This document shows positions 4,881-64,000 of a stretch of 64,000 nt of DNA, piece after piece. The position numbers and the translations under genes are program-made. This stretch comes from an uncultured virus (IMG/VR IMGVR_UViG_3300025585_000041) (Duplodnaviria; Heunggongvirae; Uroviricota; Caudoviricetes): positions 1 through 64,000 of the IMG/VR virus record IMGVR_UViG_3300025585_000041; one strand, written 5' to 3'. Under the pieces are notes generated by a model, which had not been told where the DNA came from, ran no database searches, and was given only the letters and a program-made list of their open reading frames with translations. Within the stretch, counting starts at the first letter, position 1; every line of letters begins with the position of its first letter.

Positions 4881-5207
4881 ATGGCTACAACTGTGCATGA
4901 AGCAAAAGAAATCGTTCTTATTGACGGCACAAAGATAAAAGTAAGACCACTGAAGATATCTCTTCTTCGTCCATTTATGAAGAAGTTCGAAGGTATTGCA
5001 GCAGTGGCAGAAGATAATGAAAAATCAATGACTCTTCTTATGGAATGTGTAGCAATTGCTATGCAGCAATATAAGCCAGAGTTGTCAGAAGATCTTGCTG
5101 CTCTTGAAGAGAATTTGGATCTTCCTACAGTTTACAAAATCGTTGAAGAGGCTTCAGGAATTAAGTTAACAGAAGCCAGTCTTATCGGCGGACTTGCAAA
5201 CGTATAA
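4881..5207 (+). CDS. Tail assembly chaperone, short (G-like) form
   Basis: 108 aa, directly before tape measure, strong SD, paralog of the preceding gene. Confidence 0.75.
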   Translation: MATTVHEAKEIVLIDGTKIKVRPLKISLLRPFMKKFEGIAAVAEDNEKSMTLLMECVAIAMQQYKPELSEDLAALEENLDLPTVYKIVEEASGIKLTEASLIGGLANV

Positions 5208-5236
5208 AAAATAAATATAAATAGAGGTGTAATGGA

Positions 5237-24581: not shown

Positions 24582-24877
24582 AAAATAAAAATCATATGGA
24601 ATGGTTACAGGCTTTAAAAACCATGGGTCATAAAGAATATTGGACAAAGGCAAACATTGTAGAATTTTTTGCTTTTGTTGCCAAAGCAATAATTATTTTA
24701 CCAGGATTACTGTTTGATGTGAGTGTATGGTGGTTTTATATATTTGCATTAGTATCAAGTATTGGACTTATTTGGTCATCTACTGTTAAAACAATACCTA
24801 CCCTAATTTGGTTTAATATTTTATGGTCAATCCTTGCAATACTTTATATTGCAAAATATTTTGGAGTTATTCTTTGA
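24578..24877 (+). CDS. Small membrane protein (about 3 TM)
   Basis: Hydrophobic segments; overlaps both neighbours. Confidence 0.65.
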   Translation: MKNKNHMEWLQALKTMGHKEYWTKANIVEFFAFVAKAIIILPGLLFDVSVWWFYIFALVSSIGLIWSSTVKTIPTLIWFNILWSILAILYIAKYFGVIL

Positions 24878-26331
24878 AAGTAGTTGTTGCTGGAGGCGGT
24901 ACTGCTGGATATCTTGCTGCTTTAACAATTAATAAAAGATTGCCACATGCAGACATAACGGTAATAGATAGTTCTAGAGTTGGGGTGCTGGGTGCTGGAG
25001 AAGGAACCACAACTAACTTTGCTTATATTTTTGATGAATTAGAATTACCAATAGATAAATTTATAGAGCATACTGGGTCAACATTAAAGAACGGTATAAA
25101 ATTTATAGGATGGTCTAAAAGACAAGATTCATACTTTCATCCATTAATAAATTATGTATCTGATAATGATCTTACAAAAGAAGAACAATTAGAATTATTT
25201 AAGTTAGCATCTATAGAAGTTATGTCAAATAATAATAATTTAGATGATATTAATAAAGGACTTAGTGCTACAAATAAAAATAAACTATCTTGGCCATATA
25301 TTGGATGGCATTTAGATGCTATTAAATTAGCAGAATTTTTTAAAGAAGAGTCAACAAAAAGAGGAATAAAAATAATAGATGATAAAATTAAACATGTTGG
25401 AGAGTTTAATGGAAATATTACTGTTATACACTGTGAGTCTGGTTCTTATCAATGTGATTTTTTAATAGATGCTACTGGATTTAAAAATTTATTTGTTGGG
25501 CATCACTTACAATCTGAATGGGTTGATACATCAGAAAGTTTACCTTGTACTAAAGCATTAGCATTCTTTTTACCACAAGATGAAAATTATTCTATGTGTA
25601 CAGAAATTATAGCAATGAAATATGGTTGGGTATGGAAGACACCGTTAAAACATAGATATGGATGCGGATATGTATACGATCCAAAATATACATCTAAGGA
25701 AAATGCATTAGAAGAAATTTATACTCTTTTTAAAAAAGAAGATGTCAAAGTAGTTAATCATTTTGATTTTAAACCAGGATATTATAAAACACCATGGGTT
25801 AAAAATTGTTTATCTGTTGGGCTTGCTGCGGGATTCTTTGAACCATTACATGCTACGTCTATTATGCTTACTATATACATGTTAAGATTGTTTACGTCTC
25901 CAGAATTTTTAACTGAATATACATTAAATAATAATGAAACAGTTATTGAAAAATATAATGATTTGATATTACAAAAAAATAAAGAACTATTAGGATTTAT
26001 TTATATACATTATTTAACTGACAAAGATAATTCTGAATTTTGGAAAAACTTTAAAATAGAAAATAAAATGCCAGAATATGCAGAAAATGTATTAAGAGAA
26101 TTAGATAAAGATTATATATCACAATACGTTATTTCAAATACTAATAAAACATTTGGATATCAGTCATGGATGACTACATATGTAAATACTGGACAGTTTA
26201 ATAGATCTAATTTGTATTCAGATTTGCAAACTAAGCAAGCATATGATAAACTGTATAATGAAGCAAAAAACTTTGAAGGAATAGATGTTAAAGAGTATTT
26301 ATCTAAGCACTTGACAGATGTTACCTTTTAA
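24874..26331 (+). CDS. Flavin-dependent halogenase (tryptophan halogenase family)
   Basis: TTG start after GGAG; GGGTAG, GAGEGT, TLKNGIKF (catalytic Lys position), DATG, GWVWKTP, FFEPLHATS. Confidence 0.85.
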   Translation: MKVVVAGGGTAGYLAALTINKRLPHADITVIDSSRVGVLGAGEGTTTNFAYIFDELELPIDKFIEHTGSTLKNGIKFIGWSKRQDSYFHPLINYVSDNDLTKEEQLELFKLASIEVMSNNNNLDDINKGLSATNKNKLSWPYIGWHLDAIKLAEFFKEESTKRGIKIIDDKIKHVGEFNGNITVIHCESGSYQCDFLIDATGFKNLFVGHHLQSEWVDTSESLPCTKALAFFLPQDENYSMCTEIIAMKYGWVWKTPLKHRYGCGYVYDPKYTSKENALEEIYTLFKKEDVKVVNHFDFKPGYYKTPWVKNCLSVGLAAGFFEPLHATSIMLTIYMLRLFTSPEFLTEYTLNNNETVIEKYNDLILQKNKELLGFIYIHYLTDKDNSEFWKNFKIENKMPEYAENVLRELDKDYISQYVISNTNKTFGYQSWMTTYVNTGQFNRSNLYSDLQTKQAYDKLYNEAKNFEGIDVKEYLSKHLTDVTF

Positions 26332-48173: not shown

Positions 48174-48200
48174 TAGTGTATAATGTTAATAGGAGGAAAA

Positions 48201-48803
48201 ATGCATAGAATTAAAATTATAGATAATTTTATAGAGCCAATAGATGCTTTAACATTAATACAGCAACAAAATGATCCAAACTCAATTAGGCTTCCATATC
48301 CAGAATATTATAAAGAAAGATTTGGTGGTACATCTTTACCATATAACCCAACAGTAATGTCTATATTAAAGAAATATGGCGATAAATCTAATGAGGTTCA
48401 CAAAGAATTAAACGGATTTAATAGTCCAATATATGTGTTTAAGGCATTTGGTTCACACTGGACTACTGGCACAAAAGGACCGTTACATTTAGACGCACAA
48501 GATCCAGAGCCATGGATTGAGTGGAGTACTATAATATATCTAAATGAGGAGCCAGACTATACTGGAGGAAAAATATTTTTTCCAAATCAAGATTTTATTT
48601 ATCAACCAAAAAGATATTCTGCAGTCTTTTTTCCAAGTGCTGGAAGTGAATATATTCATGGTATAACAGAAGTAACTTCTGGCAATAGATATACCGCTTT
48701 ATATATGCATACATCTCTTCCTCAACATGCAGATCCAGATTTTCTTGGAGAAGATAAGAATCCAAAATGGAGGGCGCCAGAACATGAATTTAACTACTTA
48801 TGA
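48201..48803 (+). CDS. Prolyl-4-hydroxylase-like 2OG-Fe(II) oxygenase
   Basis: AGGAGG; IIDNFI, HLD, IIYLN, YTGG, HGITEVTSGNRY. Confidence 0.85.
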   Translation: MHRIKIIDNFIEPIDALTLIQQQNDPNSIRLPYPEYYKERFGGTSLPYNPTVMSILKKYGDKSNEVHKELNGFNSPIYVFKAFGSHWTTGTKGPLHLDAQDPEPWIEWSTIIYLNEEPDYTGGKIFFPNQDFIYQPKRYSAVFFPSAGSEYIHGITEVTSGNRYTALYMHTSLPQHADPDFLGEDKNPKWRAPEHEFNYL

Positions 48804-49455
48804 TTATGAAATATTAGATTTAGGATTAGTTTATTATAAAAATGCTTTAAATAATCCACAAGAAATTATTGATATAGTTAAATCTGTTGATGAAAAATAT
48901 AATCAAAAAGAACACGGAGATAATTATACTGCAGTTCAACCCTGGCATGCTTGGCAAAATGAAAGTGCTGGAACATTAGAAACTTTTTGTTGGCAAAAAT
49001 TTTTCCCAAAACCAGAGGACATTAGAGCAGATGATTATTATTATAAGGATCAGCAGTATGTCTCTAAAAGACTTTATGATGCATTAGATGCTGCAACAAA
49101 TCATTATACAAATATTATATATCCATTTGCATCAAGAAATATTAAGTCTAGAGAATATAGTGTGCACCTTTTAAGGTATGAAAAAGGTGGGTACCTACCA
49201 GCACATCAAGATCATGGGGTAAGTAGCAGAGTAATTTCTGTTGTTATGTATTTAAATAATGATTACGAAGGTGGAGAAATATCTTTTCCAAATTCTAATG
49301 TTAAAATAAAGCCAGAACCAGGAAGTATTATTTTCTTTCCTTCAAATTATTTATATATACATGAAGTTGCTCCAATTATTAGTGGAACTAGATATTCCAT
49401 GCCACATTGGTATCATAATATGAAGACTCCAATAATGTCGACTGGCCAGGAATAA
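48784..49455 (+). CDS. Prolyl-4-hydroxylase-like 2OG-Fe(II) oxygenase
   Basis: HQD, MYLNNDYEGGE, FPS, HEVAPIISGTRY. Confidence 0.88.
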   Translation: MNLTTYDYEILDLGLVYYKNALNNPQEIIDIVKSVDEKYNQKEHGDNYTAVQPWHAWQNESAGTLETFCWQKFFPKPEDIRADDYYYKDQQYVSKRLYDALDAATNHYTNIIYPFASRNIKSREYSVHLLRYEKGGYLPAHQDHGVSSRVISVVMYLNNDYEGGEISFPNSNVKIKPEPGSIIFFPSNYLYIHEVAPIISGTRYSMPHWYHNMKTPIMSTGQE

Positions 49456-50144
49456 TGGAATTTTATGAAAATTATTTAACAAAAAACACCACTATCTCTC
49501 CAGTTTTTTGGCATAAAGATGGTATGCCAGATTATAGAAAAAATATTTCAAACAGTAATGTAATATATAAATTAAACTCACATGGATTAAGATCAGATGA
49601 ATTTATAAAAAATCATAATGGCGAACATATTTTATTTGCTGGCTGTTCTATAACTTGTGGTATAGGTGTTAATATAGAAGATACATGGGCATATAAAGTT
49701 TATTCTGATTTCAAAAATTCTTCTGGATTTTTTAATGTTTCTCTTCCAGGCGGTTCGCCAATAGAAATAATATCAAATATATATAAATATATAAATTTAT
49801 ATGGAAATCCAGATTATATTTTTATATTATTGCCACCAATACATAGGGATGGAAGATATATAATTAAAGATCATATTGATAAAGTTGTTTATAATTTTTA
49901 CAAATCTTTAGAAATTTTTTGTTATTTTAATAATATAAAACTTCTATCATCTTCCTGGTCATCTAAAAATGAATTTGATTTTTTAAATAATTTTGATACT
50001 TTTTTTGAAATTAATAAAAGCGATATAGATTATTATGGTGGTGAAATTCTTGGTGATGATAAACATCATCCTGGACCTGCAGCACATTTAATTTGGTATA
50101 ATGAATTTAAGAAGAGGATTAATTATGAAAATTTTAGGAATTAA
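49455..50144 (+). CDS. SGNH-hydrolase-like protein
   Basis: FAGCSITCG, NVSLPGGS, DKHHPG..AH. Confidence 0.65.
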   Translation: MEFYENYLTKNTTISPVFWHKDGMPDYRKNISNSNVIYKLNSHGLRSDEFIKNHNGEHILFAGCSITCGIGVNIEDTWAYKVYSDFKNSSGFFNVSLPGGSPIEIISNIYKYINLYGNPDYIFILLPPIHRDGRYIIKDHIDKVVYNFYKSLEIFCYFNNIKLLSSSWSSKNEFDFLNNFDTFFEINKSDIDYYGGEILGDDKHHPGPAAHLIWYNEFKKRINYENFRN

Positions 50145-51561
50145 TGAAACAACACATGATGCTTCTGTATCATTAATAGATAATGGTAGCATTTTGTTTG
50201 CTGGCCATGCTGAAAGATACAGTAAAGAAAAAAATGATTGGTTTACAAACGACGAACTAATAGATCAAGCACTTTCGTATGGTAAGCCAGATCAAATAGC
50301 ATATTATGAAAATCGTTGGTTAAAAAAAATAAGAATAATGACTAGGGGTGGCTTCGGAGGAGGAAAACCTTATTATCTTGAAAGAAATGATTTAAGATGG
50401 ATACCAAGAGAATCTTTTAGCCATCACCATTCTCATGCAGCAGCAGGTTATTACACGAGTAAATTTAATGATGCAGTAATAGTTGTTTTAGATGCCATAG
50501 GGGAATATAATACATCAACAATCTGGACTGGACAGGGATCATATATTAAGCAGGTCTATAAAAAAAATCATCCATTTAGTTTTGGGCTATTCTATTCTGC
50601 CTTTACTCAATTAGTTGGATTAAAACCAAATGAAGAAGAGTATATTATGATGGGCATGGCTGCATATGGTGACTGGACAAGATATTATAACAAGGTAAAA
50701 GAATACTTTTCATCTATAGATGACCAAAAATATGGATTCCATAATGGTATTTTAGATTGGAATGAAATAATAGATGAACAAGCCAAGTTTGATATAGCAG
50801 CAGCAGTTCAAAAAATATATGAGGATAGATTAGTTAATTTCATGGCCATGGCTCAAAAATTAACTGGTAAAAAGAATCTTGTTTTTATGGGTGGATGCGC
50901 CCTTAATTGTGCAGCAAACACAATGTTATGGAGGATGTTTGATGATGTTTGGATTATGCCAAATCCAGGCGACGCTGGATCCTCTCTTGGCGCAGCAGCA
51001 GCAGCATATGGAAATCATTTAAATTGGGAGCATCCATATTTAGGTTACGATCTTGGTGGAGAGTATCCAGTCAGTAAAATTATGGCAGAATTAATAAGAA
51101 ATAAAATTGCAGCAGTTGCAACTGGACGTGCAGAATACGGACCAAGAGCACTTGGAAACAGAAGTATTTTGGCAGATCCAAGGGATCCTGACATTAAAGA
51201 TAAGGTTAATTTAATTAAAAAAAGAGAATTATTCAGGCCTTTTGCTCCAGTAATTTTAGAAGAGCATGCATCAAAATGGTTTGATATGAATTATACTTCT
51301 CCTTATATGCAGTATACTCCTAAATGTTTAAAGCCAGAACTTATACCGTCTGTAGTACATAAAGACGGTACATCTAGAGTTCAAACTGTAAATAAAAATC
51401 AACATCCAGGACTATACAATCTATTATCGGAATGGTATGCTGTCACTGGAATCCCAATATTACTTAATACAAGTTTAAATATTAAAGGTCAGCCATTATT
51501 AAATGATGAAAATGATATTTTAGAATGGGAAAAAGCATACAATACTAAAATAGTACGATGA
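50125..51561 (+). CDS. O-carbamoyltransferase (NodU/CmcH/TobZ family)
   Basis: HDAS, ERYS, HH.SHAA, DAIGE, GGCALNC, GDAG, EYGPRALGNRS, RPFAP, LNTSLN. Confidence 0.92.
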   Translation: MKILGINETTHDASVSLIDNGSILFAGHAERYSKEKNDWFTNDELIDQALSYGKPDQIAYYENRWLKKIRIMTRGGFGGGKPYYLERNDLRWIPRESFSHHHSHAAAGYYTSKFNDAVIVVLDAIGEYNTSTIWTGQGSYIKQVYKKNHPFSFGLFYSAFTQLVGLKPNEEEYIMMGMAAYGDWTRYYNKVKEYFSSIDDQKYGFHNGILDWNEIIDEQAKFDIAAAVQKIYEDRLVNFMAMAQKLTGKKNLVFMGGCALNCAANTMLWRMFDDVWIMPNPGDAGSSLGAAAAAYGNHLNWEHPYLGYDLGGEYPVSKIMAELIRNKIAAVATGRAEYGPRALGNRSILADPRDPDIKDKVNLIKKRELFRPFAPVILEEHASKWFDMNYTSPYMQYTPKCLKPELIPSVVHKDGTSRVQTVNKNQHPGLYNLLSEWYAVTGIPILLNTSLNIKGQPLLNDENDILEWEKAYNTKIVR

Positions 51562-52277
51562 ACAAAAAAGTTGTATTTGCTGCTATGCCAATAGGCAATA
51601 ATGATCATATTGCTATAGCATTTAAAAATTATTTAAATCAAACAGATATAGCAATTGTTGAAACAGAAAAAGTTTTCAAAAATTTTTGCGATATTAATGG
51701 TGTTTATATTAACAATATATATGAATATAATAACTCTAATTCTTTAGAAATAATTTTAAATGGTATTAAAAATAACAAAAATATACTTGTTGTGTCAAAT
51801 GATGGATATCCAAATATACAAGATTTTGCTTCACCATTAATACAATCTTTAATAGAGAACAACATAGAAATTGAATTAATTCCTGGTCCAAATGCAATAT
51901 TACAATCTTTATTTTTTTCAGGATTTGATGGAGATAGTGGACAATTCTATTTTGGAGGAAGAATACCAAATACTGATACAGTTAAATTTTTAGAAACATT
52001 ATCTAATATTAATTGTCCTATAGTGCTGATATGTATTCCATTTTTAAATAAACATTTAGAGGATATAGCAACTGTTTTTCCATATAGAGATATTGCCATA
52101 TGTATTGATCTTAGTAAGCCAACACAGAAAATTATAAGGGGGAAGACTACTAATGCTCTAGAATTTATAAAGCCATATAGACTTTTTCCATTTAATTTTG
52201 ACATAATAAATGGATGGAAAAACAATATACATACCTTTTACTCACATTACACACTTGTCATATCTCAAATCAAATGA
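51558..52277 (+). CDS. RsmI-like SAM-dependent methyltransferase (tetrapyrrole methylase fold), divergent
   Basis: AMPIGN, SNDGYPNIQD, IPGPNA, DLSK. Confidence 0.7.
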   Translation: MNKKVVFAAMPIGNNDHIAIAFKNYLNQTDIAIVETEKVFKNFCDINGVYINNIYEYNNSNSLEIILNGIKNNKNILVVSNDGYPNIQDFASPLIQSLIENNIEIELIPGPNAILQSLFFSGFDGDSGQFYFGGRIPNTDTVKFLETLSNINCPIVLICIPFLNKHLEDIATVFPYRDIAICIDLSKPTQKIIRGKTTNALEFIKPYRLFPFNFDIINGWKNNIHTFYSHYTLVISQIK

Positions 52278-54478: not shown

Positions 54479-54904
54479 ATGAAGTACTTAGTGGGGTTTT
54501 TTAGTTCTTTTTTATTGATTTATGTTTTGTTTAAACTTCAAATAAAAAATGATATTTTTAAAGAGCCAAAAATAAAAAAAATTAAATACAGTCAAAGCCA
54601 TATACATTCTATAGTGCTTCCTTTATTACCAAAAAACACAAAAAGAAATAATAGAAAAAAATCTCAGGCATCTATTCATGAATCAAAATATAGCATCAAA
54701 GTAATCCTTATGGATAACAATGCTTATTGGATTAAAGATAATGTATTTTATATGGCTGATATGAGTTCAGATGGAATGGTCGATAAAGATACGACTAGGA
54801 TAGTTGACACAATGGCTATGAATAAGGTACAATTAGATAAAATGATGTTCATCATTGATAGGCTTAGAGAGGATACATATGATAGTGGTGGTTCAAGGGA
54901 CTAA
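54479..54904 (+). CDS. Hypothetical protein with N-terminal membrane anchor
   Basis: Hydrophobic N-terminus; TATAAT at 54464-54469. Confidence 0.6.
   Translation: MKYLVGFFSSFLLIYVLFKLQIKNDIFKEPKIKKIKYSQSHIHSIVLPLLPKNTKRNNRKKSQASIHESKYSIKVILMDNNAYWIKDNVFYMADMSSDGMVDKDTTRIVDTMAMNKVQLDKMMFIIDRLREDTYDSGGSRD
54804..54833 (+). promoter_or_regulatory. Promoter inside CDS
   Basis: TTGACA-18 nt-TACAAT. Confidence 0.6.
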
Positions 54905-55229
54905 TGGTTTTAATGATTACCAGGTCTTTTTACGTGCTATTGCTGTTGCTCTTACTAGTTTAAAAAACGATGACAAATACTTTTATATACATAGCGTAGG
55001 TCCTGCAAGGGTAAACTCTATGGCCATGGAATTTGTAAATATTTCAGAAAGAAGTATGAAATCTCGTGGAATTAAAATTAAGTTAATACATACCCCACCT
55101 TCATGGGTTATTGAAAATATGTCTTCTATTGATTATTTTGCTTACCTTGCAACACCAAATGAGGGTAAAGGTAATTTAGTTAAAGAAGCAGAATTAAATA
55201 ATATTGAAGTTGGAATTTTTAAATACTAA
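54879..55229 (+). CDS. YspA/SLOG-like protein
   Basis: MIVVVQGTNGFNDY; GAGG RBS. Confidence 0.55.
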   Translation: MIVVVQGTNGFNDYQVFLRAIAVALTSLKNDDKYFYIHSVGPARVNSMAMEFVNISERSMKSRGIKIKLIHTPPSWVIENMSSIDYFAYLATPNEGKGNLVKEAELNNIEVGIFKY

Positions 55230-55239
55230 AGGATAAAAA

Positions 55240-55446
55240 ATGTATATTAAGTCATTAGAACAAATGGAAAATATTGTAAAAAATAATAGATCGCTGTTTT
55301 GGTCTGGCTGGGATGTAATGCATAAAACAAAAACAGACAAAGGTAGAACTTCTAAAAATGGTAAGTTTATTAATGGAAAATGGTATATTGTTAATAAAAT
55401 TAAGTTAAACAGAGATGGTTGGTATATACCAGAAAAACTGACATAA
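55240..55446 (+). CDS. Hypothetical protein
   Basis: AAGGA RBS; Trp/Gly-rich small domain. Confidence 0.6.
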   Translation: MYIKSLEQMENIVKNNRSLFWSGWDVMHKTKTDKGRTSKNGKFINGKWYIVNKIKLNRDGWYIPEKLT

Positions 55447-55447
55447 T

Positions 55448-56023
55448 ATGAAATTTAATATATTTAAAGGTTCAGTTATTACTCTTCCTCAAATATTTAA
55501 TGAAGATTCTGATGATTTTGATACAGCAATTTCATCTGCTAAATCTAAATGTATTGAAAAAGGAATTGATGTAGATACTGAGCCGTTTAATTTTCTAGAT
55601 CCACATATACTTGTTTTAGTAATAAAAGAAAACAATACAAGAATATCTTATTGGGATAATAATATTTTTTCTTTTGTGGTTAGTGGTGTTGTTGGAAATA
55701 TTGGAGATGGATTTTTATTATTAAATTCAACAAATTATACAATAACACATGGCAAAATAGATACATATAAATTTAGAATAGTTAATAAAAAAAATTACGG
55801 CAATGGAGAAAAAATATATAGGGCAGAAATAATTTTTTCAGATAAATATTATTTAGATGTTCTTGCAAATAATAAAGAAGAGGCACTAAATATAGCATAC
55901 TCCATTGGAATGGAAGAATGGGTGCATGAATGGCCTGAAGATAAAGAATTAGATCGATGGCAAAGCACACGAAAAAGTAAATGGGGTAAAAAAATGATAA
56001 AGGTAGTGGAAAAAAATGCATAA
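55448..56023 (+). CDS. Hypothetical protein
   Basis: ORF tiles between neighbours. Confidence 0.55.
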   Translation: MKFNIFKGSVITLPQIFNEDSDDFDTAISSAKSKCIEKGIDVDTEPFNFLDPHILVLVIKENNTRISYWDNNIFSFVVSGVVGNIGDGFLLLNSTNYTITHGKIDTYKFRIVNKKNYGNGEKIYRAEIIFSDKYYLDVLANNKEEALNIAYSIGMEEWVHEWPEDKELDRWQSTRKSKWGKKMIKVVEKNA

Positions 56024-56300
56024 AATAAAATGGAAAGATAATGCCAGTTGCCTTGGATATGACACAAATATATTTTTTGATAAATATGAAGAATCTGAGT
56101 CTTTTAGAGAAGCAATAGACAAATTATGTTTAAGTTGTCCAGTCTTAAAAACTTGTTTTTCTGTAGGTGTTTCTCAAAAAGAATGGGGAGTTTGGGGTGG
56201 AGTTTATTTAGAAAATGGTGATATTTCTAAAGAATTTAATTCCCATAGATCAGAAAAAGATTGGAGCAATGTCTGGACTATCCTGACAAATGAAAAATAA
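56016..56300 (+). CDS. whiB: WhiB-family Fe-S transcription factor
   Basis: C...CLSC.....C plus EWGVWGG. Confidence 0.9.
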   Translation: MHKIKWKDNASCLGYDTNIFFDKYEESESFREAIDKLCLSCPVLKTCFSVGVSQKEWGVWGGVYLENGDISKEFNSHRSEKDWSNVWTILTNEK

Positions 56301-57230
56301 ATGTTTGTATACGGAGATTGGAAGCAGCCAAATAAACTAGAGGGACTACATAGAATAAGTGTTCCAAAATTAGGTTATGTATGGCCAATTATGGGACAGT
56401 TAGAAGATAATGAGGAATTTTCTGAAAGACTAATTGAAAAACCTGATCTTCATTTAGTCTTATGGCAAAAAAATTTTTTACATGCATTTTTTAATATGGT
56501 TCAGTACATTTTACACTATCATAGAATAAATAATGATGCTTATTTTGTCATAATGTTTGGATTAGATTATCGTGAAGAAGACAAAGAAATAAATCATGCT
56601 AAGTTTATCTTAAAACTTTTAGATGATAAAAAAATTAAATATGAATTAGTTTATTTAAAAGAAGAGTCAATTGTAGTTAAAGATGCAACATATATGTCAG
56701 TTATACCTTTTTCTTCTTTTGTTTTTAAAGAAGTGTATGACTATTGTAGTACTAAAATAAATAGAGTTAAATCTCCTAATAAAGTTGCCTATTTAGCAAG
56801 ATCAAAAGTTCCACCAAAAGCAGAAAATAGTATTTTTAATGGAAAAGATCAAAATTCTTTTAGAATAAAAAATGATTTAAGGATAGAAGATGAAGAGGTA
56901 TTAATTGAATATTTTAAGCAAAAAGGTTTTGACATAGTTTATCCAGAAGATTTTGCAAGTTTTGAAGAACAAATTATTTATTTTGACAGTGTAAAGGCAA
57001 TGATATGTCCATCTGGTTCTGGCATGGCTAATATGATGTTTTTGCAGCCATCACAAATTGTGGTGGAATTGCAAACCCCAGTATTAATAGGTGGAACACA
57101 ACAAGTGCATCCATTTTATGAAGGTTTTGCTTGGGCAAAAAAACATAATCTTATTACTATTCCACATGAAAGAAAATCAGAGCATATAATAGAATATTTT
57201 GAAAAAAGAAAATTTTTGGAGTATTTATGA
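56301..57230 (+). CDS. Glycosyltransferase family 61 (DUF563)
   Basis: H.FF, YLAR, R...EE, PE...FEEQI.YF, SGSGMANMMF. Confidence 0.8.
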   Translation: MFVYGDWKQPNKLEGLHRISVPKLGYVWPIMGQLEDNEEFSERLIEKPDLHLVLWQKNFLHAFFNMVQYILHYHRINNDAYFVIMFGLDYREEDKEINHAKFILKLLDDKKIKYELVYLKEESIVVKDATYMSVIPFSSFVFKEVYDYCSTKINRVKSPNKVAYLARSKVPPKAENSIFNGKDQNSFRIKNDLRIEDEEVLIEYFKQKGFDIVYPEDFASFEEQIIYFDSVKAMICPSGSGMANMMFLQPSQIVVELQTPVLIGGTQQVHPFYEGFAWAKKHNLITIPHERKSEHIIEYFEKRKFLEYL

Positions 57231-58189
57231 TAAGAATGGAACCAAGAAAGCCAATATATTATGATGGCTTATTTAAAATTGAAGATGGATTTAATGCTTC
57301 TATGCCAATTATTACTAAGATAACTCATGAAGAATTTAAGGGCTATACATTTAATCAACATAATAACGGAGATCACTTTTTAGATGATACTAATAGAAAA
57401 AGGATAGTCGTTAGATTTGAGTCAGCATTTTTTCATATATTTTTTCACGTACTTGGTCCAATTTTATATGAATATAAACAAGATAAAAACATTGAGGTAA
57501 TACTATTACATCCAAGCAAAGAAAAAGATATTTTTCATAATAGTGGATTATTTGTAATAAATGTATTAAGAAAATATGGTATTCCGTATAGCGTTGTGCA
57601 AACACATTCTATTTATCCCCCAATAGTTAGAAATTTTTATTATTACGAAGAGACAGAGTTATGTGGAGAATTTATTCGCTGTCTTGATGAGATGGTTGAA
57701 GGATATCGAGATCTTTCTATATCTAATGACAAAAAAATATATGTTTCTAGACAAAAAAAACAAAACATGATGGCAACACAATTACACCAAATGTCACAAG
57801 AAGAAATAGATAAATTAGAATTTAAAGATGATTTAAGAATTGATAATGAAGAATATTTAGAGAATTTATTAAGAGCCAATGGATTTGAAATATGTACCCC
57901 AGAAATGTTTAATAGCATTGAAGATCAAATAAAATATTTTGATAAAGCAAAAATTATAGTTTCATTATCTGGATCAGGACTCACTAATTTGCTTTTTATG
58001 AGAAAAAATACAACCATTATAGAGTTAAGTACAACACAATTACTTAAACAGAATATAGAATTTCATTTTCATTTTTATCTAATATCTTCTTTATTTTCTG
58101 AAAAAATATATGTATCAGTACCAAATGTCACTAGAAAATATGATAAAATAGAAAAAGAACTTGAAAGGTTTATAAAAATATATGACTAA
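57227..58189 (+). CDS. Glycosyltransferase family 61 (DUF563)
   Basis: FFHIFF, IYVSR, RIDNEE, PE...IEDQI.YF, SGSGLTNLLF. Confidence 0.82.
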   Translation: MIRMEPRKPIYYDGLFKIEDGFNASMPIITKITHEEFKGYTFNQHNNGDHFLDDTNRKRIVVRFESAFFHIFFHVLGPILYEYKQDKNIEVILLHPSKEKDIFHNSGLFVINVLRKYGIPYSVVQTHSIYPPIVRNFYYYEETELCGEFIRCLDEMVEGYRDLSISNDKKIYVSRQKKQNMMATQLHQMSQEEIDKLEFKDDLRIDNEEYLENLLRANGFEICTPEMFNSIEDQIKYFDKAKIIVSLSGSGLTNLLFMRKNTTIIELSTTQLLKQNIEFHFHFYLISSLFSEKIYVSVPNVTRKYDKIEKELERFIKIYD

Positions 58190-58910
58190 TATACTTATTC
58201 CAATTGCTGGACTTGGTAGTAGGTTTCCAGTAGACATATATAAAACAACTAAGCCATTAATAAAAATAAATGGAATTTCTATGATACAGCATGCCATAAA
58301 TTCTTTATCTATAAAAGGAAAGTATAATTTTGTAGTTAGAGATAACATATTTTTTGATGAATTATATTCAACATTAAAAAACATTGAGCCAACATGTAAT
58401 ATTATTAAGATTGATAAATTAACAAATGGACCAGCAGAAACATGCTTGATGGCAAAAGATTTTATCAATAATGATGAAGAACTCATAATTGCTAACTCTG
58501 ATCAAATAATGTGGTGGGATTCTGATTTATTTTTACAGGTAGCACGTAATTCAAAATATGATGGAATGATTGTAACTTATACCGCAAATACAGATAAAAA
58601 TAGTTATGCTAAAATAAATAAAAATGGATTAGTTTTAGAAATAAAAGAAAAAGAAATTATAAGTGATATATCATTAAATGGAATACATTATTGGAAACAT
58701 GGAAAAGATTTTGTTGATAGTGCAAGCAAAATGATATTAAATAACGAAAGATATAATGGAGAATTTTATGTAGGACCTACTTATAATTCAATGATTAAAG
58801 ATGGTAAAAAAATTGGAATTTATCACATACCTTCTTTTCAACATAATGCTGTTGGAGTACCTTCTGATTTAGAACTATATATGGAGAAACTATGGAAATT
58901 AGAAGAATAG
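58182..58910 (+). CDS. Sugar-phosphate nucleotidyltransferase
   Basis: IPIAGLGSRF, KPLI, GPAET, NSDQ, EK..IS, EFYV, GVP.DL. Confidence 0.85.
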   Translation: MTNILIPIAGLGSRFPVDIYKTTKPLIKINGISMIQHAINSLSIKGKYNFVVRDNIFFDELYSTLKNIEPTCNIIKIDKLTNGPAETCLMAKDFINNDEELIIANSDQIMWWDSDLFLQVARNSKYDGMIVTYTANTDKNSYAKINKNGLVLEIKEKEIISDISLNGIHYWKHGKDFVDSASKMILNNERYNGEFYVGPTYNSMIKDGKKIGIYHIPSFQHNAVGVPSDLELYMEKLWKLEE

Positions 58911-59215
58911 AAGACTTTACCAGAGGATGGATTATAGGAAACTTTGATCCGTCTTTATTAAAAACAGATAAATTTGAGGTTGGTTTGTTAACTCATAAGG
59001 CTGGAGAAATGTGGCCAAAACATTACCATGAGGTTGCAACAGAATATAATGTTCTTGTATCTGGTAGAATGATAATACAAGGAAAAGAATTAAAATCTGG
59101 AGACGTTTTTGTTTTTAATCCAGGAGATATAGCAGATCCAATATTTTTAGAAGATTGTTCAGTTTTAGTAGTAAAAGTTCCATCTATTATAGGAGATAAG
59201 TATGAAGTTTTATAG
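58892..59215 (+). CDS. Cupin-domain protein
   Basis: GW..GNF.P, H.H...E..V...G motif. Confidence 0.8.
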   Translation: MEIRRIEDFTRGWIIGNFDPSLLKTDKFEVGLLTHKAGEMWPKHYHEVATEYNVLVSGRMIIQGKELKSGDVFVFNPGDIADPIFLEDCSVLVVKVPSIIGDKYEVL

Positions 59216-60407
59216 AGACTTAGACGACTCTGAAAAACAAAGATGTATAGTTGTAACATATTATATAGAAGTCAATCCTTCACATGGTAGATTAAATGAT
59301 GCTGCATGGGCGCTTGCTATTGGACAAAGTGTTGGTAATCCAAAACAAAGAAATAGTTGGGAAACTGATGATATATTTGAAATGTCATCATGTGTTATTT
59401 ATGATGATGAAGAAAAATTAAAATTAGCACTAAATGGTTTTGTTAAAATTGGTTTTCCAAAAATAAATTCAGATTGGGATAACGATGGTATTTCGCATTT
59501 CTTATGTCAGATTATGGGTGGACAATTAGACATTGATGTATTTAAAGTATGTAGAGTGGTAGATGTTGAATTTCCAGAAAGTGTAAAAAAGAGTTTTCTT
59601 GGCCCTAAGTTTGGTATGTCTGGAATAAGAGAGTTAACTGGACAAAAAAATAAGCCATTGTTAGGCGGTATTGTAAAACCTAAAACTGGAATATCAGTTA
59701 AACAACTAGGATATATAGTTAAAGAGTTAATTGATGGTGGCGTTGATTTTATTAAAGAAGATGAAATATTATCTAACCCAACATTTTGTAGGCTAGAAGA
59801 AAGAGTTGAGCACATTGCTAACATTATCGCAGATTCTGGAAGAAAGGTAGTTTTTGCTCATTGTATTAATGCTGATCCACATGCTATTTTAAATAGAGTA
59901 AAAACAGTATATGAAAATGGTGGTAATGGTGTACATGTAAACTTCTGGAGCGGATTTGGAGCATATAACTCTATACGAAAAATGGATCTTCCAATATATA
60001 TGCATTTTCAAAAAAGCGGGGATAAGATATTAACAAATCCTAGTCATAATTTTAGAATTGATTGGTATGTTATTTGTAAGTTAGCAGCATTAATGGGAGT
60101 AGATACGATACATACTGGTATGTGGGGTGGGTATTTAAGTGATGACGAAGATAATTTAAAAAGATCTATAGATTTATTAAATGATAATAATGTTGTGCCA
60201 GCGCTAAGTTGCGGAATGCATCCTGGCCTTGTAGAGGCTATAAGCAGAAGGTTTGGTATAAACTATATGGCAAACGTAGGAGGAGCCATCCACGGGCATT
60301 CTGGTGGCACTTTAGGGGGCACTATGGCCATGAGGCAGGCTATAGATAAGTCCTATGGTCCAGAATATATTTCTGCTATAGAAAAGTGGGGAATTGTTAA
60401 TGATTAA
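59202..60407 (+). CDS. RuBisCO-like protein (form IV-type, probably non-carboxylating)
   Basis: F.GP.FG, GGIVKPKTG, GGVDFIKEDE, IHTG, LSCGMHPG, VGGAIHGH..G...G..AMRQA. Confidence 0.92.
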   Translation: MKFYRDLDDSEKQRCIVVTYYIEVNPSHGRLNDAAWALAIGQSVGNPKQRNSWETDDIFEMSSCVIYDDEEKLKLALNGFVKIGFPKINSDWDNDGISHFLCQIMGGQLDIDVFKVCRVVDVEFPESVKKSFLGPKFGMSGIRELTGQKNKPLLGGIVKPKTGISVKQLGYIVKELIDGGVDFIKEDEILSNPTFCRLEERVEHIANIIADSGRKVVFAHCINADPHAILNRVKTVYENGGNGVHVNFWSGFGAYNSIRKMDLPIYMHFQKSGDKILTNPSHNFRIDWYVICKLAALMGVDTIHTGMWGGYLSDDEDNLKRSIDLLNDNNVVPALSCGMHPGLVEAISRRFGINYMANVGGAIHGHSGGTLGGTMAMRQAIDKSYGPEYISAIEKWGIVND

Positions 60408-60840
60408 AATATCACATAGGGGTAATCTATATGGTAAAAATGAATCAAGAGAAAACTCCCCAGATTATATTGCTGAGGCTATAAATGCTGGATACAATGT
60501 TGAAATAGATTTTTGGTTTGTAAATAATAAAATGTATTTAGGACATGATAAACCAACATATGAGATCGACATATATTTTTTAAATTCTTATATTAAAAAG
60601 TTATGGATTCATTGTAAAAATTTAGAAGCCTTAGATTTAGTTTTATCAATGCCAAAATATTATAATGCGTTTTGGCACCAAGAAGATGATTTTACAATAA
60701 CTACTAATCATTATATATGGACATACCCTGGTATGCCAGTTACACCAAAAAGTATTTTGGTTCATCAAGAAATGCCAACCGCAGATGTTTTAAATATGCA
60801 GATGGCTGGAATCTGTAGTGATCATATTGGAAGAGTATAA
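60400..60840 (+). CDS. PI-PLC/GDPD-like phosphodiesterase
   Basis: ISHRG, EN, VEID, LGHD, WIHCKN, ICSD. Confidence 0.78.
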   Translation: MIKISHRGNLYGKNESRENSPDYIAEAINAGYNVEIDFWFVNNKMYLGHDKPTYEIDIYFLNSYIKKLWIHCKNLEALDLVLSMPKYYNAFWHQEDDFTITTNHYIWTYPGMPVTPKSILVHQEMPTADVLNMQMAGICSDHIGRV

Positions 60841-60842
60841 AA

Positions 60843-61049
60843 ATGAACAATAAAGAATATTTAGAATTTTTAAGACAAAAAAATAAAAAAATTATGTCTA
60901 AATGTTATTACTGTGATGGTTTTGCAATAACAATAATTGCAGATGGTTACTCAATACATCCTGTATGTAAAAATCATGATAATAGATCATTTGATATAAT
61001 TGAAGATGATATAAATAAAATTTTTGAAAGTCAGAGGGATTTTGAATGA
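60843..61049 (+). CDS. Small zinc-binding hypothetical protein
   Basis: CYYC...CKNH. Confidence 0.55.
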   Translation: MNNKEYLEFLRQKNKKIMSKCYYCDGFAITIIADGYSIHPVCKNHDNRSFDIIEDDINKIFESQRDFE

Positions 61050-61807
61050 TTATACAAATTATAGGATTACCAGGTTCTGGTAAGACAGAGTTAGCAAAAG
61101 CATTAAAAGAACGAATTAATGCTATTCATCTTAATGCGGATGAGGTTCGTGCTACCGTAAATTCTGACCTTGGCTTTAGCCATGAAGATAGGATTGAGCA
61201 GGCAAGACGAATGGGTGAGATGGCTCGTCTTATTGCAAAACAAGGGGTTGCACCAGTAGTAGTTGATTTTGTTTGTCCTACAGAATTAACTCGTGCAGCA
61301 TTTGGTAAGCCAGATATTTTAGTTTATATGGAAACAATTGAGGCTGGTAGATTTGAAGATACTAATAAAATGTTTGAAGTGCCATCTAACTTTGATATGG
61401 CATTTATTAGTCATGAATGGGATGCCAATGAAAAAGCATCGGTAATCATTAATCAATTTAATTTACACGATTGGTCAGCACCTACAACATTAATGCTTGG
61501 TAGATATCAGCCTTGGCATGAAGGCCATCATGCTTTGTATGAAGAGGCTGGGAAAAGAACAAAACAAGTGCTTCTTGGGGTACGCAATACATATAACACA
61601 AGTCCAAAAGATCCGCTTAAATTTGATCAAGTTAAAGAATATATTTCAAAAGATGAGTTTATGGATGGGGCAATGGTGCTACGTTTGCCAAATATTACTA
61701 ACATAGTTTATGGTCGTGATGTAGGATATAAAATTGAACAGATTGAACTTGCTCCAGAAATACAGGCTATTTCTGCGACACAAAAACGTAAGGAAATGGG
61801 AATATGA
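61046..61807 (+). CDS. APS-kinase-like P-loop kinase fused to HxGH nucleotidyltransferase
   Basis: GLPGSGKT, NADEVR, LGFS.EDR.EQ.RR; GRYQPWHEGH; ISAT.KR. Confidence 0.85.
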   Translation: MIIQIIGLPGSGKTELAKALKERINAIHLNADEVRATVNSDLGFSHEDRIEQARRMGEMARLIAKQGVAPVVVDFVCPTELTRAAFGKPDILVYMETIEAGRFEDTNKMFEVPSNFDMAFISHEWDANEKASVIINQFNLHDWSAPTTLMLGRYQPWHEGHHALYEEAGKRTKQVLLGVRNTYNTSPKDPLKFDQVKEYISKDEFMDGAMVLRLPNITNIVYGRDVGYKIEQIELAPEIQAISATQKRKEMGI

Positions 61808-62106
61808 ATAAAATTAAATATATTTGGGAAATAGTAAAAGACCGTTGGATTAGACCATATGATGAAATTACTGTAAGGTTTAATACAAAGGCACAACCAG
61901 AAGATCCTTTGGTATGGAGAATTTTTATTAATGGAGTTGAAAATTTAGCAAGTGGATTTGAAATTCATGGATATGTTTATGATATTGTGAATCAGCATAA
62001 CGGTGAGACAAAATGGAATGTTGGATGTAAGGGAAGAGTTCGTTGGGAAGGTTCTAAGGCTATTATTATTACAGCGCCAAAACAATCAGAAGACCTTTTG
62101 TCATAA
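61804..62106 (+). CDS. Hypothetical protein
   Basis: ATGA-coupled ORF. Confidence 0.6.
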   Translation: MNKIKYIWEIVKDRWIRPYDEITVRFNTKAQPEDPLVWRIFINGVENLASGFEIHGYVYDIVNQHNGETKWNVGCKGRVRWEGSKAIIITAPKQSEDLLS

Positions 62107-62343
62107 ATGTATACAGATGGAATGCGTAGGGCTTTTAGGTCATTAAACCATTTTTGTCCTAAAGGTTTTAGTTTAGAACTTATAGATAATGATAATTTTA
62201 TTACTGTTAAAGCATCAGAAAAATCTTTTATGTCGTTACTTGACGAAGACAAGCGTCGTGCTGTAGAATATATGGTAAGAGTAAAAAAAGCATTAGAAGA
62301 TAATGGTGCCATTGTCTTATTAGTAAGAGAAGGCGGAAAATGA
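62107..62343 (+). CDS. Hypothetical protein
   Basis: ORF abutting neighbours. Confidence 0.65.
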   Translation: MYTDGMRRAFRSLNHFCPKGFSLELIDNDNFITVKASEKSFMSLLDEDKRRAVEYMVRVKKALEDNGAIVLLVREGGK

Positions 62344-62474
62344 AAAATAAATTTATTTTTGGCATTATTGGAATAATAACCTTATCAACAATATTAACAT
62401 TTTGGGTTAGGCAGTTGACAAAAATTGAAGACTTTGATATATTTGGAGATATAGAAGACGAGGAAGATCTATAA
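62340..62474 (+). CDS. Small membrane-anchored protein (44 aa, not in ORF track)
   Basis: MKNKFIFGIIGIITLSTILTFWVRQLTKIEDFDIFGDIEDEEDL; ATGA and TAATG overlaps. Confidence 0.55.
   Translation: MKNKFIFGIIGIITLSTILTFWVRQLTKIEDFDIFGDIEDEEDL
62415..62443 (+). promoter_or_regulatory. Candidate promoter inside small CDS
   Basis: TTGACA-17 nt-TATATT with TG extension. Confidence 0.5.
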
Positions 62475-62971
62475 TGCAAACATTTCTACCATCATCAGAT
62501 TTTAATATCTGTGCAAAAATGCTTGATTCTAAAAGATTAAATAAGCAAATATTAGAAGGCTACCAAATACTAAATGTGCTCTCTGGAAACTCACCTACTG
62601 GTGGTTGGCGCAATCATCCTGCCGTACTTATGTGGAAAGGCAGCGAATGGATGCTTAATGAATACGTTTATGCAATGATTAAAGAAGCAAAGTCTAGAAA
62701 TATAAAAGTTGATAAAAATCAAGAAAATATGAAATTATTAAAAACAAGATTTTCTAAAATTTGGGGTAAAAATAAACCTAAATGGTTTATAGATAAAAAT
62801 AAATTAATGCTTGTTATTACCACACACAAAGCAAATTTATTTAAAAAAGATCCTCTTTATTATGCAAAATTTCAACACGCTATTTATAGCATAAATAACT
62901 CACCTTGCTGTCCAAATCGTAAAGAACCTTGTAAGTATTATTGGCCAACACACGAGGATAAATATGCTTGA
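62474..62971 (+). CDS. Pyrimidine-dimer DNA glycosylase (DenV/T4 endonuclease V-like)
   Basis: MQTFLP, LD.KRL.KQ..E..QI, W.NHPAV.MW, H..NL..KDP. Confidence 0.8.
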   Translation: MQTFLPSSDFNICAKMLDSKRLNKQILEGYQILNVLSGNSPTGGWRNHPAVLMWKGSEWMLNEYVYAMIKEAKSRNIKVDKNQENMKLLKTRFSKIWGKNKPKWFIDKNKLMLVITTHKANLFKKDPLYYAKFQHAIYSINNSPCCPNRKEPCKYYWPTHEDKYA

Positions 62972-63326
62972 TTTATTAGTTTTTATTTTAGTTGTTATAG
63001 TTATTGTTGGCGCAGTTATAGAAAACATAAGATTAAAAAATAAAAATATAGAGTTAATGTTTTTGTTAACACAATCTGCCATAGATATAAACAGTATTAA
63101 AGAAAAAATAGAAAATAATTCAGAAAATATTGAACAAGAACATCTAATAGCATTTTTAACTGAAACAAGAGATATGGCGTATAAGTATATTGAAGATTTA
63201 CAAAAAGAATTAATTACATTTGCTAAAATTTTAGATCAAGAGTCATCGTCTCCAAATGATTTATCTGTTCTTAGAATTAAAAAGGCTTTTGATAACTTAG
63301 AAAGTATGAAGCCAGATGCAAATTAA
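62964..63326 (+). CDS. Membrane-anchored coiled-coil protein
   Basis: N-terminal TM helix; GAGG RBS. Confidence 0.6.
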   Translation: MLDLLVFILVVIVIVGAVIENIRLKNKNIELMFLLTQSAIDINSIKEKIENNSENIEQEHLIAFLTETRDMAYKYIEDLQKELITFAKILDQESSSPNDLSVLRIKKAFDNLESMKPDAN

Positions 63327-64000
63327 TAAAATAGTAATAGTTGGCGGGGGTTCTGCTGGATGGATGACTGCATCTGCACTAATAAAAGCATACCCAGAAA
63401 AAAATATTTCTTTAATTGAAAGCACAGATATTCCAATTATTGGTGTAGGAGAAAGTACTACATTTGAAATAAATGGATTTTTTAATTTTTTAGATTTAGA
63501 CTATTCAAGCATTATGAAATATACAAATGCTGCCTATAAAGTGGCAATAGGTTTTACTAACTTTAAAACTAAAGATTCGCCAACATTTTATTATCCGTTT
63601 GGACACCCCAATTTAGACCCAGAAATAACACATTATGGACTTGATGATTGGCATTATAAAAAAGCATTTTATCCAAAAACAGAAGATCAAGATTATGTAA
63701 GATATTTTTTCCCGCAGGCTAAAAGCATGGAAACAAACAAACTTGTAATTGATCATATAGACTCAATGAATCCATATCAGCCTCATAGGGATTTAGCATT
63801 GCAGATGGATGCTACTAAACTTGGTAACTGGCTTGCAGAATATTATGCTATCCCCAGGGGTGTAAATAGAATATTTGGTACAGTTACTGATATTGATGGA
63901 AATGAAAATGGTATAACATCTATACTTTTAGACAATGGCACTAAAGTTTATGCTGACTTATTTATAGATTGTTCTGGATTTAAAAGTATCCTTTTGGGTA
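63316..64000 (+). CDS. Second flavin-dependent halogenase (tryptophan halogenase family), 3' truncated by window
   Basis: My translation: MQINKIVIVGGGSAGWMTA...IGVGEST...AAYKVAIGFTNF...ADLFIDCSGFKSILLG. Confidence 0.85.
   Translation, partial: MQINKIVIVGGGSAGWMTASALIKAYPEKNISLIESTDIPIIGVGESTTFEINGFFNFLDLDYSSIMKYTNAAYKVAIGFTNFKTKDSPTFYYPFGHPNLDPEITHYGLDDWHYKKAFYPKTEDQDYVRYFFPQAKSMETNKLVIDHIDSMNPYQPHRDLALQMDATKLGNWLAEYYAIPRGVNRIFGTVTDIDGNENGITSILLDNGTKVYADLFIDCSGFKSILLG

Follow-up and report, generated by a model that had tools for sequence, protein, structure and literature searches.

Within a 64,000-nucleotide stretch of DNA from an uncultured tailed virus (IMG/VR record IMGVR_UViG_3300025585_000041, positions 1 to 64,000; hereafter the window, meaning the whole stretch analysed), six consecutive plus-strand open reading frames (ORFs) at 56301-60840 encode a RuBisCO-like protein (RLP) in the company of two glycosyltransferases, a nucleotidyltransferase, a cupin and a miniature phosphodiesterase. 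Enzymes with the RuBisCO fold have been described in CO2 fixation and in salvage or catabolic pathways. Comparison of this array with its relatives in phages, bacteria and archaea points to a different setting, in which the cassette probably supplies a surface glycan with an unusual sugar, or sugar-like unit, in nucleotide-activated form, with the RLP as its enolising or isomerising step. If this is true, the RuBisCO fold would have a function of a new type, in glycan building, and an activated sugar not yet described would be implied. The six genes, which overlap successively by 4, 8, 19, 14 and 14 bases, are the following:

56301..57230, plus strand: GT61-family glycosyltransferase, copy a (Pfam PF04577, 4e-15)
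57227..58189, plus strand: GT61-family glycosyltransferase, copy b (Pfam PF04577, 1e-17), with a 4-base overlap with copy a
58182..58910, plus strand: sugar-phosphate nucleotidyltransferase of predicted RmlA/GlmU fold, 242 amino acids (PF00483, phrog_3980, fold)
58892..59215, plus strand: small single-domain cupin, 107 amino acids, with a His-His-Glu motif (Cupin_2 below its cut-off, phrog_24762)
59202..60407, plus strand: RLP of a distinct clade, 401 amino acids, predicted to be non-carboxylating (PF00016, PF02788)
60394..60840, plus strand: miniature GDPD-like phosphodiesterase, 148 amino acids (phrog_34507, motifs, profile, fold)

An overlapping six-gene array and the assignment of its six proteins had been put forward in an earlier reading of the sequence (the original prediction), and both are borne out by the ORFs, Pfam matches, profiles and folds. 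The true start of the GDPD-like gene is probably the ATG at 60400, because its homologues start there.

The RLP belongs to the RuBisCO large-subunit superfamily, as both of the characteristic domains are matched: the catalytic barrel (PF00016, RuBisCO_large, 3e-38, 132 bits against a cut-off of 30) and the N-terminal domain (PF02788, RuBisCO_large_N, 8e-5, 23.4 against 20.7 bits). It lies under every NCBIfam cut-off for RuBisCO, with form III scoring best (198 against 497 bits), then PRK04208 (183 against 438) and form II (107 against 489). The cut-offs of the form IV subfamilies are likewise missed, both by MtnW (153 against 409 and 129 against 514 bits) and by OiaX, the apiose-pathway decarboxylase (147 against 700), and PHROGs contains no family for the protein. 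The nearest structures in the PDB are form III RuBisCOs (8dht at 1.4e-42, and 2cwx), which come ahead of DK-MTP-1-P enolase (2.3e-34).

The active site is more telling. Residues were placed by a HMMER alignment to 8dht, with the numbering of spinach RuBisCO, and the pattern was scored over 100 distinct relatives from phages, bacteria and archaea. The window RLP keeps the core and the P1 phosphate site (K175, K177, K201, D203, E204, H327, S379, G381, G403 and G404). K175, K177, K201, D203, E204, S379 and G381 are invariant in 100/100 relatives, which means that the Mg/carbamate core (the first five of these) is complete throughout, and position 327 is H in the window and in 86/100 relatives and Q in 14/100. 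Relative to 8dht, by contrast, the window protein carries the replacements E60->G, T65->N, W66->P, N123->G, H294->Q, R295->K, H298->D and K334->Y. Among the relatives, G60, N65, P66, G123, Q294 and Y334 are each found in 100/100 and K295 in 88/100, leaving the residues of carboxylation (E60, N123, H294 and K334) as G, G, Q and Y in all of them. With E60, T65, W66, N123, H294, H298 and K334 replaced, no carboxylation is expected of the RLP, and the residue pattern describes a functionally coherent clade that should be able to enolise and is not expected to carboxylate. The intact Mg/carbamate core, together with the best profile and PDB matches falling on form III enzymes, would also suit a working RuBisCO, namely a form III-like carboxylase of a nucleotide-salvage route; given the uniform G, G, Q and Y and a form III score so far under its cut-off, this is exceedingly improbable.

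A word-based protein search with the RLP gave 2711 matches at E <= 0.001, and relatives of the RLP are encoded on 235 IMG/VR stretches. For comparison of gene neighbourhoods, 80 viral loci were kept, one of which (L003) is the window's own record (100% over 12.8 kb), together with 40 loci from species-representative genomes, and ORFs were called in each. The genomic loci come from SAR11 bacteria (42-64% identity, including one complete chromosome), DPANN archaea (43-47%) and Legionellaceae (35-37%), with Verrucomicrobia, Elusimicrobia and others as further carriers.

Homologues of the nucleotidyltransferase (BLASTP at 1e-5) are present in 76/80 viral and 37/40 genomic loci, and the RLP and nucleotidyltransferase genes lie at a distance of <=2 genes in 103/119 loci. 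The cupin has homologues in 68/80 viral and 9/40 genomic loci (BLASTP, with which hidden Markov model [HMM] searches agree), and the GDPD-like protein in 67/80 viral loci and in 16/40 genomic loci by BLASTP or 24/40 by HMM, the latter count including full-length GDPD genes of the DPANN loci. That RLP homologues should travel with this nucleotidyltransferase, cupin and phosphodiesterase set was what the original prediction had asked of their neighbourhoods, and they do; the grouping is no mere coincidence. Gene order is also recurrent. The order nucleotidyltransferase-cupin-RLP occurs in 57/80 viral loci, in 27 of which the GDPD-like gene follows directly; GDPD-nucleotidyltransferase-RLP is found in nine viral loci and eight genomic ones (SAR11), RLP-nucleotidyltransferase in 23/40 genomic loci, and RLP-cupin-nucleotidyltransferase in three genomic loci.

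Furthermore, the linkage extends to covalent fusion. The only two longer RLP relatives found (P0122 and P0123; 813 and 817 amino acids) are both RLP-nucleotidyltransferase-cupin fusions, the few long proteins in the search being weak evidence on how frequent fusion is. Identity to the window proteins is 57% for the RLP part, 61% and 44% for the two cupin parts and 33% for the nucleotidyltransferase part of P0123.

These associations bear on whether the RLP and cupin could form a salvage or catabolic module, of the type of methionine salvage or of the MTA-isoprenoid shunt and acting on 5-methylthio- or 5-deoxy-pentulose phosphates, whose location among glycan genes would be incidental. Characterised RLPs do act in methionine salvage, and an APH-type kinase follows the RLP in eight loci. 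There is also a precedent for RLP-cupin pairing in the MTA-isoprenoid shunt of R. rubrum, where the RLP is paired with a cupin methylsulfurylase (PMC6302742). Against these points stand the fusion of RLP to nucleotidyltransferase in 2/2 long relatives, the linkage to a nucleotidyltransferase and to transferases across three domains, and the MtnW scores, which are so far under their cut-offs that the original prediction's distinction between this RLP and a standard methionine-salvage enolase (153 bits against 409) holds. In addition, MtnA, MtnB and MtnK were not matched among the recurrent neighbours in Pfam scans, no search having been aimed at them. A salvage module is thus regarded as very unlikely.

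The nucleotidyltransferase matches phrog_3980, a phage family of unknown function, at 3e-57 and PF00483 (NTP_transferase) at 4e-5, its 23.7 bits lying just above the cut-off of 21.2, and G10, G12 and R14 of the G-x-G-x-R loop near its N-terminus are conserved. The family profile finds the unassigned Vibrio structure 4evw first (3.6e-34) and then GMPP, GlmU, RmlA and HddC, so that after 4evw it is nearest to enzymes of mannose-1-phosphate, GlcNAc-1-phosphate, glucose-1-phosphate and heptose-1-phosphate. IspD is matched at 8e-5 over the N-terminus only, and LicC is absent from the profile matches at E <= 0.001. The AlphaFold2 model (pLDDT 96) superposes by Foldseek on 4evw with a template modelling (TM) score of 0.82 and on RmlA/GlmU at ~0.8; as modelled, the protein has a sugar-1-phosphate nucleotidylyltransferase fold. 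An alkyl-phosphate enzyme of the LicC/IspD type had initially been favoured for this gene, became less likely after the profile and fold results, and was kept as a rival.

Four sets of genes outside the window inform this question:

L116, L117, L119 and L120, ~5000-7800 in each (Legionellaceae): LicD-family gene beside the RLP-nucleotidyltransferase pair, in loci without cupin or GDPD-like gene
L096, 10025-11542, minus strand (Micrarchaeota metagenome-assembled genome): 505-amino-acid fusion of a nucleotidyltransferase and a GDPD N-terminal region, two to three genes from the RLP
L002, 7992-9466 (Synechococcus phage Bellamy): nucleotidyltransferase homologue fused to RpiB (4e-32), followed by a 45%-identical cupin homologue
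L124, 6998-8425 (phage S-SKS1): nucleotidyltransferase homologue fused to a genuine DHBP synthase (RibB) domain (5e-65)

The first two sets speak for a product that is a CDP- or NDP-linked phospho-unit (ketol, polyol or sugar-1-phosphate) transferred as a phosphodiester, in the manner of LicC/LicD or TagD/TagF, with the GDPD-like protein acting on it. The LicD-family gene (PF04991, 1e-42 and 3e-43) divergently adjoins the RLP-nucleotidyltransferase pair in 4/4 Legionellaceae loci, all of which lack the GDPD-like gene, and in L116 and L119, the two that were scanned, the product of the gene after LicD is a membrane protein whose O-antigen-ligase-like match is weak. The frequency of GDPD-like genes with the pair (67/80 viral and 24/40 genomic loci), the nucleotidyltransferase-GDPD fusion in the Micrarchaeota locus, the small ketol phosphate substrate implied by the RibB fusion of S-SKS1 and the weak IspD matches on several members of the nucleotidyltransferase family all agree with such a phospho-unit. 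The profile and fold of the nucleotidyltransferase, on the other hand, are nearest to sugar-1-phosphate enzymes, with LicC and IspD matched as poorly as described above; the neighbours are mostly ordinary glycosyltransferases, and LicD was not found in the other 116 loci, being confined to Legionellaceae within this set. Altogether, transfer as a phosphodiester is considered unlikely, although appreciably less so than a salvage module.

The Cupin_2 match of the cupin (2e-4, 21.4 bits) is under the cut-off of 27.2, phrog_24762 (3e-33) is a phage family of unknown function, a single-sequence search of the PDB gave nothing significant (best E 0.046), and a protein-atlas look-up returned viral 'hypothetical' clusters only. 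Motif 1 of the cupin superfamily, defined as G-x5-H-x-H-x3,4-E-x6-G, is present and is conserved over 44 sequences as G-x5-H44-x-H46-x4-E51-x6-G58 (G38 to G58), while the motif-2 His is absent. These residues fit a three-ligand metal site, an arrangement that occurs in cupin sugar-phosphate isomerases or dioxygenases.

The sixth protein is without a Pfam match and finds phrog_34507 (1e-26), again a phage family of unknown function; searched as a single sequence against the PDB, it yields nothing significant (best E 0.39). An alignment of 48 sequences reveals H8, R9, N21, E37, D39, H51, H73 and K75 to be invariant, corresponding to the motifs HRG, EN, ExD, HD and HxK, of which the first four are the GDPD catalytic residues. 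The profile of the family matches the GDPD 7e0v at E 8e-5 across the HRG, EN, ExD and HD region, and the AlphaFold model (pLDDT 96) has only GDPD enzymes as its best PDB neighbours (TM 0.5-0.63 normalised to the query and 0.35-0.43 to the target). The GDPD-like character given to it in the original prediction is thereby confirmed in residues, profile and fold. With 148 amino acids against the ~240 of a (beta/alpha)8 barrel, and without a PF03009 match, it is no full member of the family, and the model depicts a cut-down GDPD-like barrel.

Beyond the conserved genes, the recurrent neighbours are GT2/GT25 giants, GT6, GT8, GT11, GT17, GT61, WavE, and FkbM-type and other methyltransferases, along with NAD epimerases, DegT aminotransferases, radical-SAM enzymes and a DUF7796-like family. 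The neighbourhood, consisting mostly of glycosyltransferases and methyltransferases, is that of a glycan island. In one viral subgroup (L035, L038 and L041-L046), the position of the mini-GDPD is taken by an APH/fructosamine-type kinase, a dehydroquinate-synthase-like sugar-phosphate cyclase, an SDR and a radical-SAM enzyme. The two GT61 proteins of the window are clear members of their family (PF04577, 56.6 and 65.1 bits against a cut-off of 27), which recurs in one SAR11 locus and in phage Bellamy, and other loci carry other transferases.

A tblastn search of 50,697 deposited phage genomes gave no match to the RLP, and the other cassette genes matched cyanophages. Glycosyltransferase islands of cyanomyoviruses contain homologues of the nucleotidyltransferase (28-46% identity), the cupin (45%) and the mini-GDPD (32-47%). 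A HAD_2 domain is fused to the nucleotidyltransferase homologue in DSL-LC03 and in several RLP-bearing loci, and the RpiB and RibB fusions of Bellamy and S-SKS1 listed above belong to the same series, the former being annotated merely as 'phosphatase'. RpiB and RibB act on ribulose 5-phosphate via enediol intermediates.

The reading of the cassette as the source of a nucleotide-activated unit for a surface glycan is supported by the linkage in three domains, the fusions, the family-specific active site, the glycan neighbours, the RpiB and RibB fusions, the nucleotidyltransferase fold and the R. rubrum example of an RLP acting together with a cupin. Gene identities, active-site pattern, conserved linkage, fusions and glycan-island context are direct observations on these loci; from them we infer the chemistry of every step, the substrate, the step order, the nucleotide and the acceptor, which would be the host envelope or the virion. 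In the proposed scheme, the conserved core (nucleotidyltransferase, cupin, RLP and mini-GDPD) would act as a biosynthetic cassette, and variable transferases, here the two GT61 enzymes, would install the unit. The RLP would enolise a 2-keto sugar phosphate by means of its carbamylated-Lys/Mg2+ site and the conserved phosphate-binding glycines, and the enediolate would be re-protonated to give an isomer or epimer, with no CO2 added. Its substrate would most likely be drawn from the ribulose-5-phosphate or ribulose-bisphosphate pool. A further isomerisation or epimerisation, dependent on metal, could then fall to the His2-Glu cupin. The RmlA-fold nucleotidyltransferase would join the phosphate of the product to a nucleoside monophosphate, and the mini-GDPD may handle a phosphodiester step, either supplying the substrate or trimming or transferring the product. 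That the unit is pentulose-derived is a tentative suggestion by analogy, and a pentulose-phosphate origin is favoured because the RpiB and RibB fusions use ribulose 5-phosphate and because RuBisCO-fold enzymes enolise ribulose-type ketose phosphates.

Several observations weigh against this scheme. All the evidence for the pathway is comparative, and the locus counts include L003 and its close relatives as well as some loci cut by contig ends. The cupin is dispensable, being absent from 31/40 genomic loci and from nine complete 'type B' viral loci, where it is truly missing (in three other viral loci a contig end accounts for its absence). The GDPD-like gene has no counterpart in 13/80 viral loci. 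The two GT61 genes are characteristic of the window's clade and are not conserved partners of the cassette, since BLASTP finds their homologues in 5/80 viral loci, all of that clade, and in 2/40 genomic loci. Moreover, known RLP substrates bear a non-anomeric phosphate and the nucleotidyltransferase is most like hexose-1-phosphate enzymes; this mismatch in phosphate position means that a linking step is lacking if the cupin does not provide it and the RLP works before activation. The self-contained pathway ending in the GT61s, as originally predicted, survives in part: the linkage and fusions of the core stand, self-containment is not supported, and the step order, the substrate and a trimming role for the phosphodiesterase are conjectural.

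A wider reading, for which the balance tips slightly towards doubt, would make this clade the first branch of the RuBisCO superfamily with an anabolic role: an enolase or isomerase, complexed or fused with a nucleotidyltransferase and a cupin, that would make a new nucleotide-activated sugar or ketol unit from a central pentulose phosphate. The cassette would pass between unrelated phages, which would use it to alter the surface of the host, and in SAR11, Legionellaceae and DPANN archaea it would serve the envelope of the carrier itself. The family is large and is present in SAR11 as well, and its product may be widespread on aquatic cell surfaces without having been recognised and may play a part in phage-host recognition.

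The genomic setting is that of a tailed phage. Every gene of the window is on the plus strand, the G+C content is ~30%, and the genes include a 2662-amino-acid tape measure (5237-13225), minor tail proteins, DnaB helicase, primase, a large DNA polymerase, a UvsX-like recombinase, a Cas4-like nuclease and an endolysin; no sheath gene was found in the window. The length of the tape measure implies a very long non-contractile tail. The phage is represented by two records that differ in length, one of 75,869 bases and an IMG/VR contig of 121,867 bases that contains a 100% identical stretch. Three genes flank the array:

56016..56300, plus strand: WhiB-like regulator (Pfam Whib, 1e-11), context outside the conserved cassette
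60843..61049, plus strand: Cys-rich ORF of 68 amino acids, without family match and of doubtful cassette membership (homologues in 2/80 viral loci)
61046..61807, plus strand: P-loop kinase with an APS-kinase-like N-terminus, fused to an HxGH cytidylyltransferase-like domain, of doubtful cassette membership

The WhiB-like gene abuts the first GT61 gene with a 0-base gap and has homologues in 5/80 viral loci. The kinase/HxGH protein matches PF01583 (1e-15, residues 2-85), PF01467 (2e-3, residues 150-186) and phrog_10255 (7e-65), with weak NadR-type and NMNAT matches, and may be related to NAD or nucleotide cofactors and not to glycans; since it is present in only 5/80 viral loci, it is not counted as part of the cassette core. 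Its possible equivalence to the 251-amino-acid genes that follow the cyanophage mini-GDPD was rejected (BLASTP E 0.09 and 0.05). A scan of 54500-63000 for sigma-70 promoters and terminators found no excess over shuffles (51 promoters against 56.9, and 2 terminators against 2.6), and the limits of the operon are therefore not defined by that scan.

Elsewhere in the same phage, two flavoenzymes of the tryptophan-halogenase family are encoded at 24823-26331 and 63316-63999, the latter running off the end (Pfam 3e-88 and 1e-43). An upstream run at 48183-52277 comprises two 2OG-Fe(II) oxygenases, a NodU/CmcH-type carbamoyltransferase (Carbam_trans_C, 1e-52) and a TP_methylase-like protein, and may be a second module for small-molecule or glycan modification.

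RLPs in phages have been described before. About 80 non-redundant RLPs related to form IV were reported on putative phage contigs, their function being left open (Jaffe, Castelle, Dupont & Banfield 2019, PMC6389311), and new branches of RuBisCO homologues had already been seen in ocean data (GOS, PMC1821046). The window RLP resembles the 'form IV-like' RLPs of phages and Beckwithbacteria of the former study in being divergent, located on IMG/VR phage contigs and deprived of carboxylase residues, and it very probably belongs to that phage clade, the comparison being with the description given in the accessible sections of the article. Two differences are apparent from the same sections: the linkage of nucleotidyltransferase, cupin and GDPD, the fusions and a glycan role are not among the findings reported there, and emphasis is placed on Myoviridae, whereas in the window phage the tape measure is long and no gene for a sheath was found within the window. 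A literature search, with subscription journals and bioRxiv supplements outside its coverage, found no paper on the cassette or on a glycan-building role for an RLP. The novelty claimed in the original prediction for a viral RLP is accordingly to be narrowed, given the phage RLPs of the 2019 study (PMC6389311), to the cassette and the glycan role, neither of which was found in print.

Among enzymes of established function, the archaeal form III RuBisCOs (8dht, 2cwx and 3kdo) are the highest-scoring relatives and share the core and phosphate-site residues with the RLP, but differ from it at E60, T65, W66, N123, H294, H298 and K334, all of which are replaced in the RLP. With MtnW and the R. rubrum RLP 1,3-isomerase, the window RLP would share the enolisation of a keto sugar phosphate on a RuBisCO fold without CO2; those two enzymes, however, are catabolic or salvage enzymes without a nucleotidyltransferase partner, and their models score far below cut-off on the window protein. 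The closest parallel in gene content is found in the NDP-sugar cassettes of cyanomyoviruses (S-CAM9, DSL-LC03, S-PRM1, Bellamy and S-SKS1), in which a homologous nucleotidyltransferase, cupin and mini-GDPD likewise lie among glycosyltransferases, yet where the window has an RLP, these cassettes have HAD_2, RpiB or RibB fused to the nucleotidyltransferase instead.

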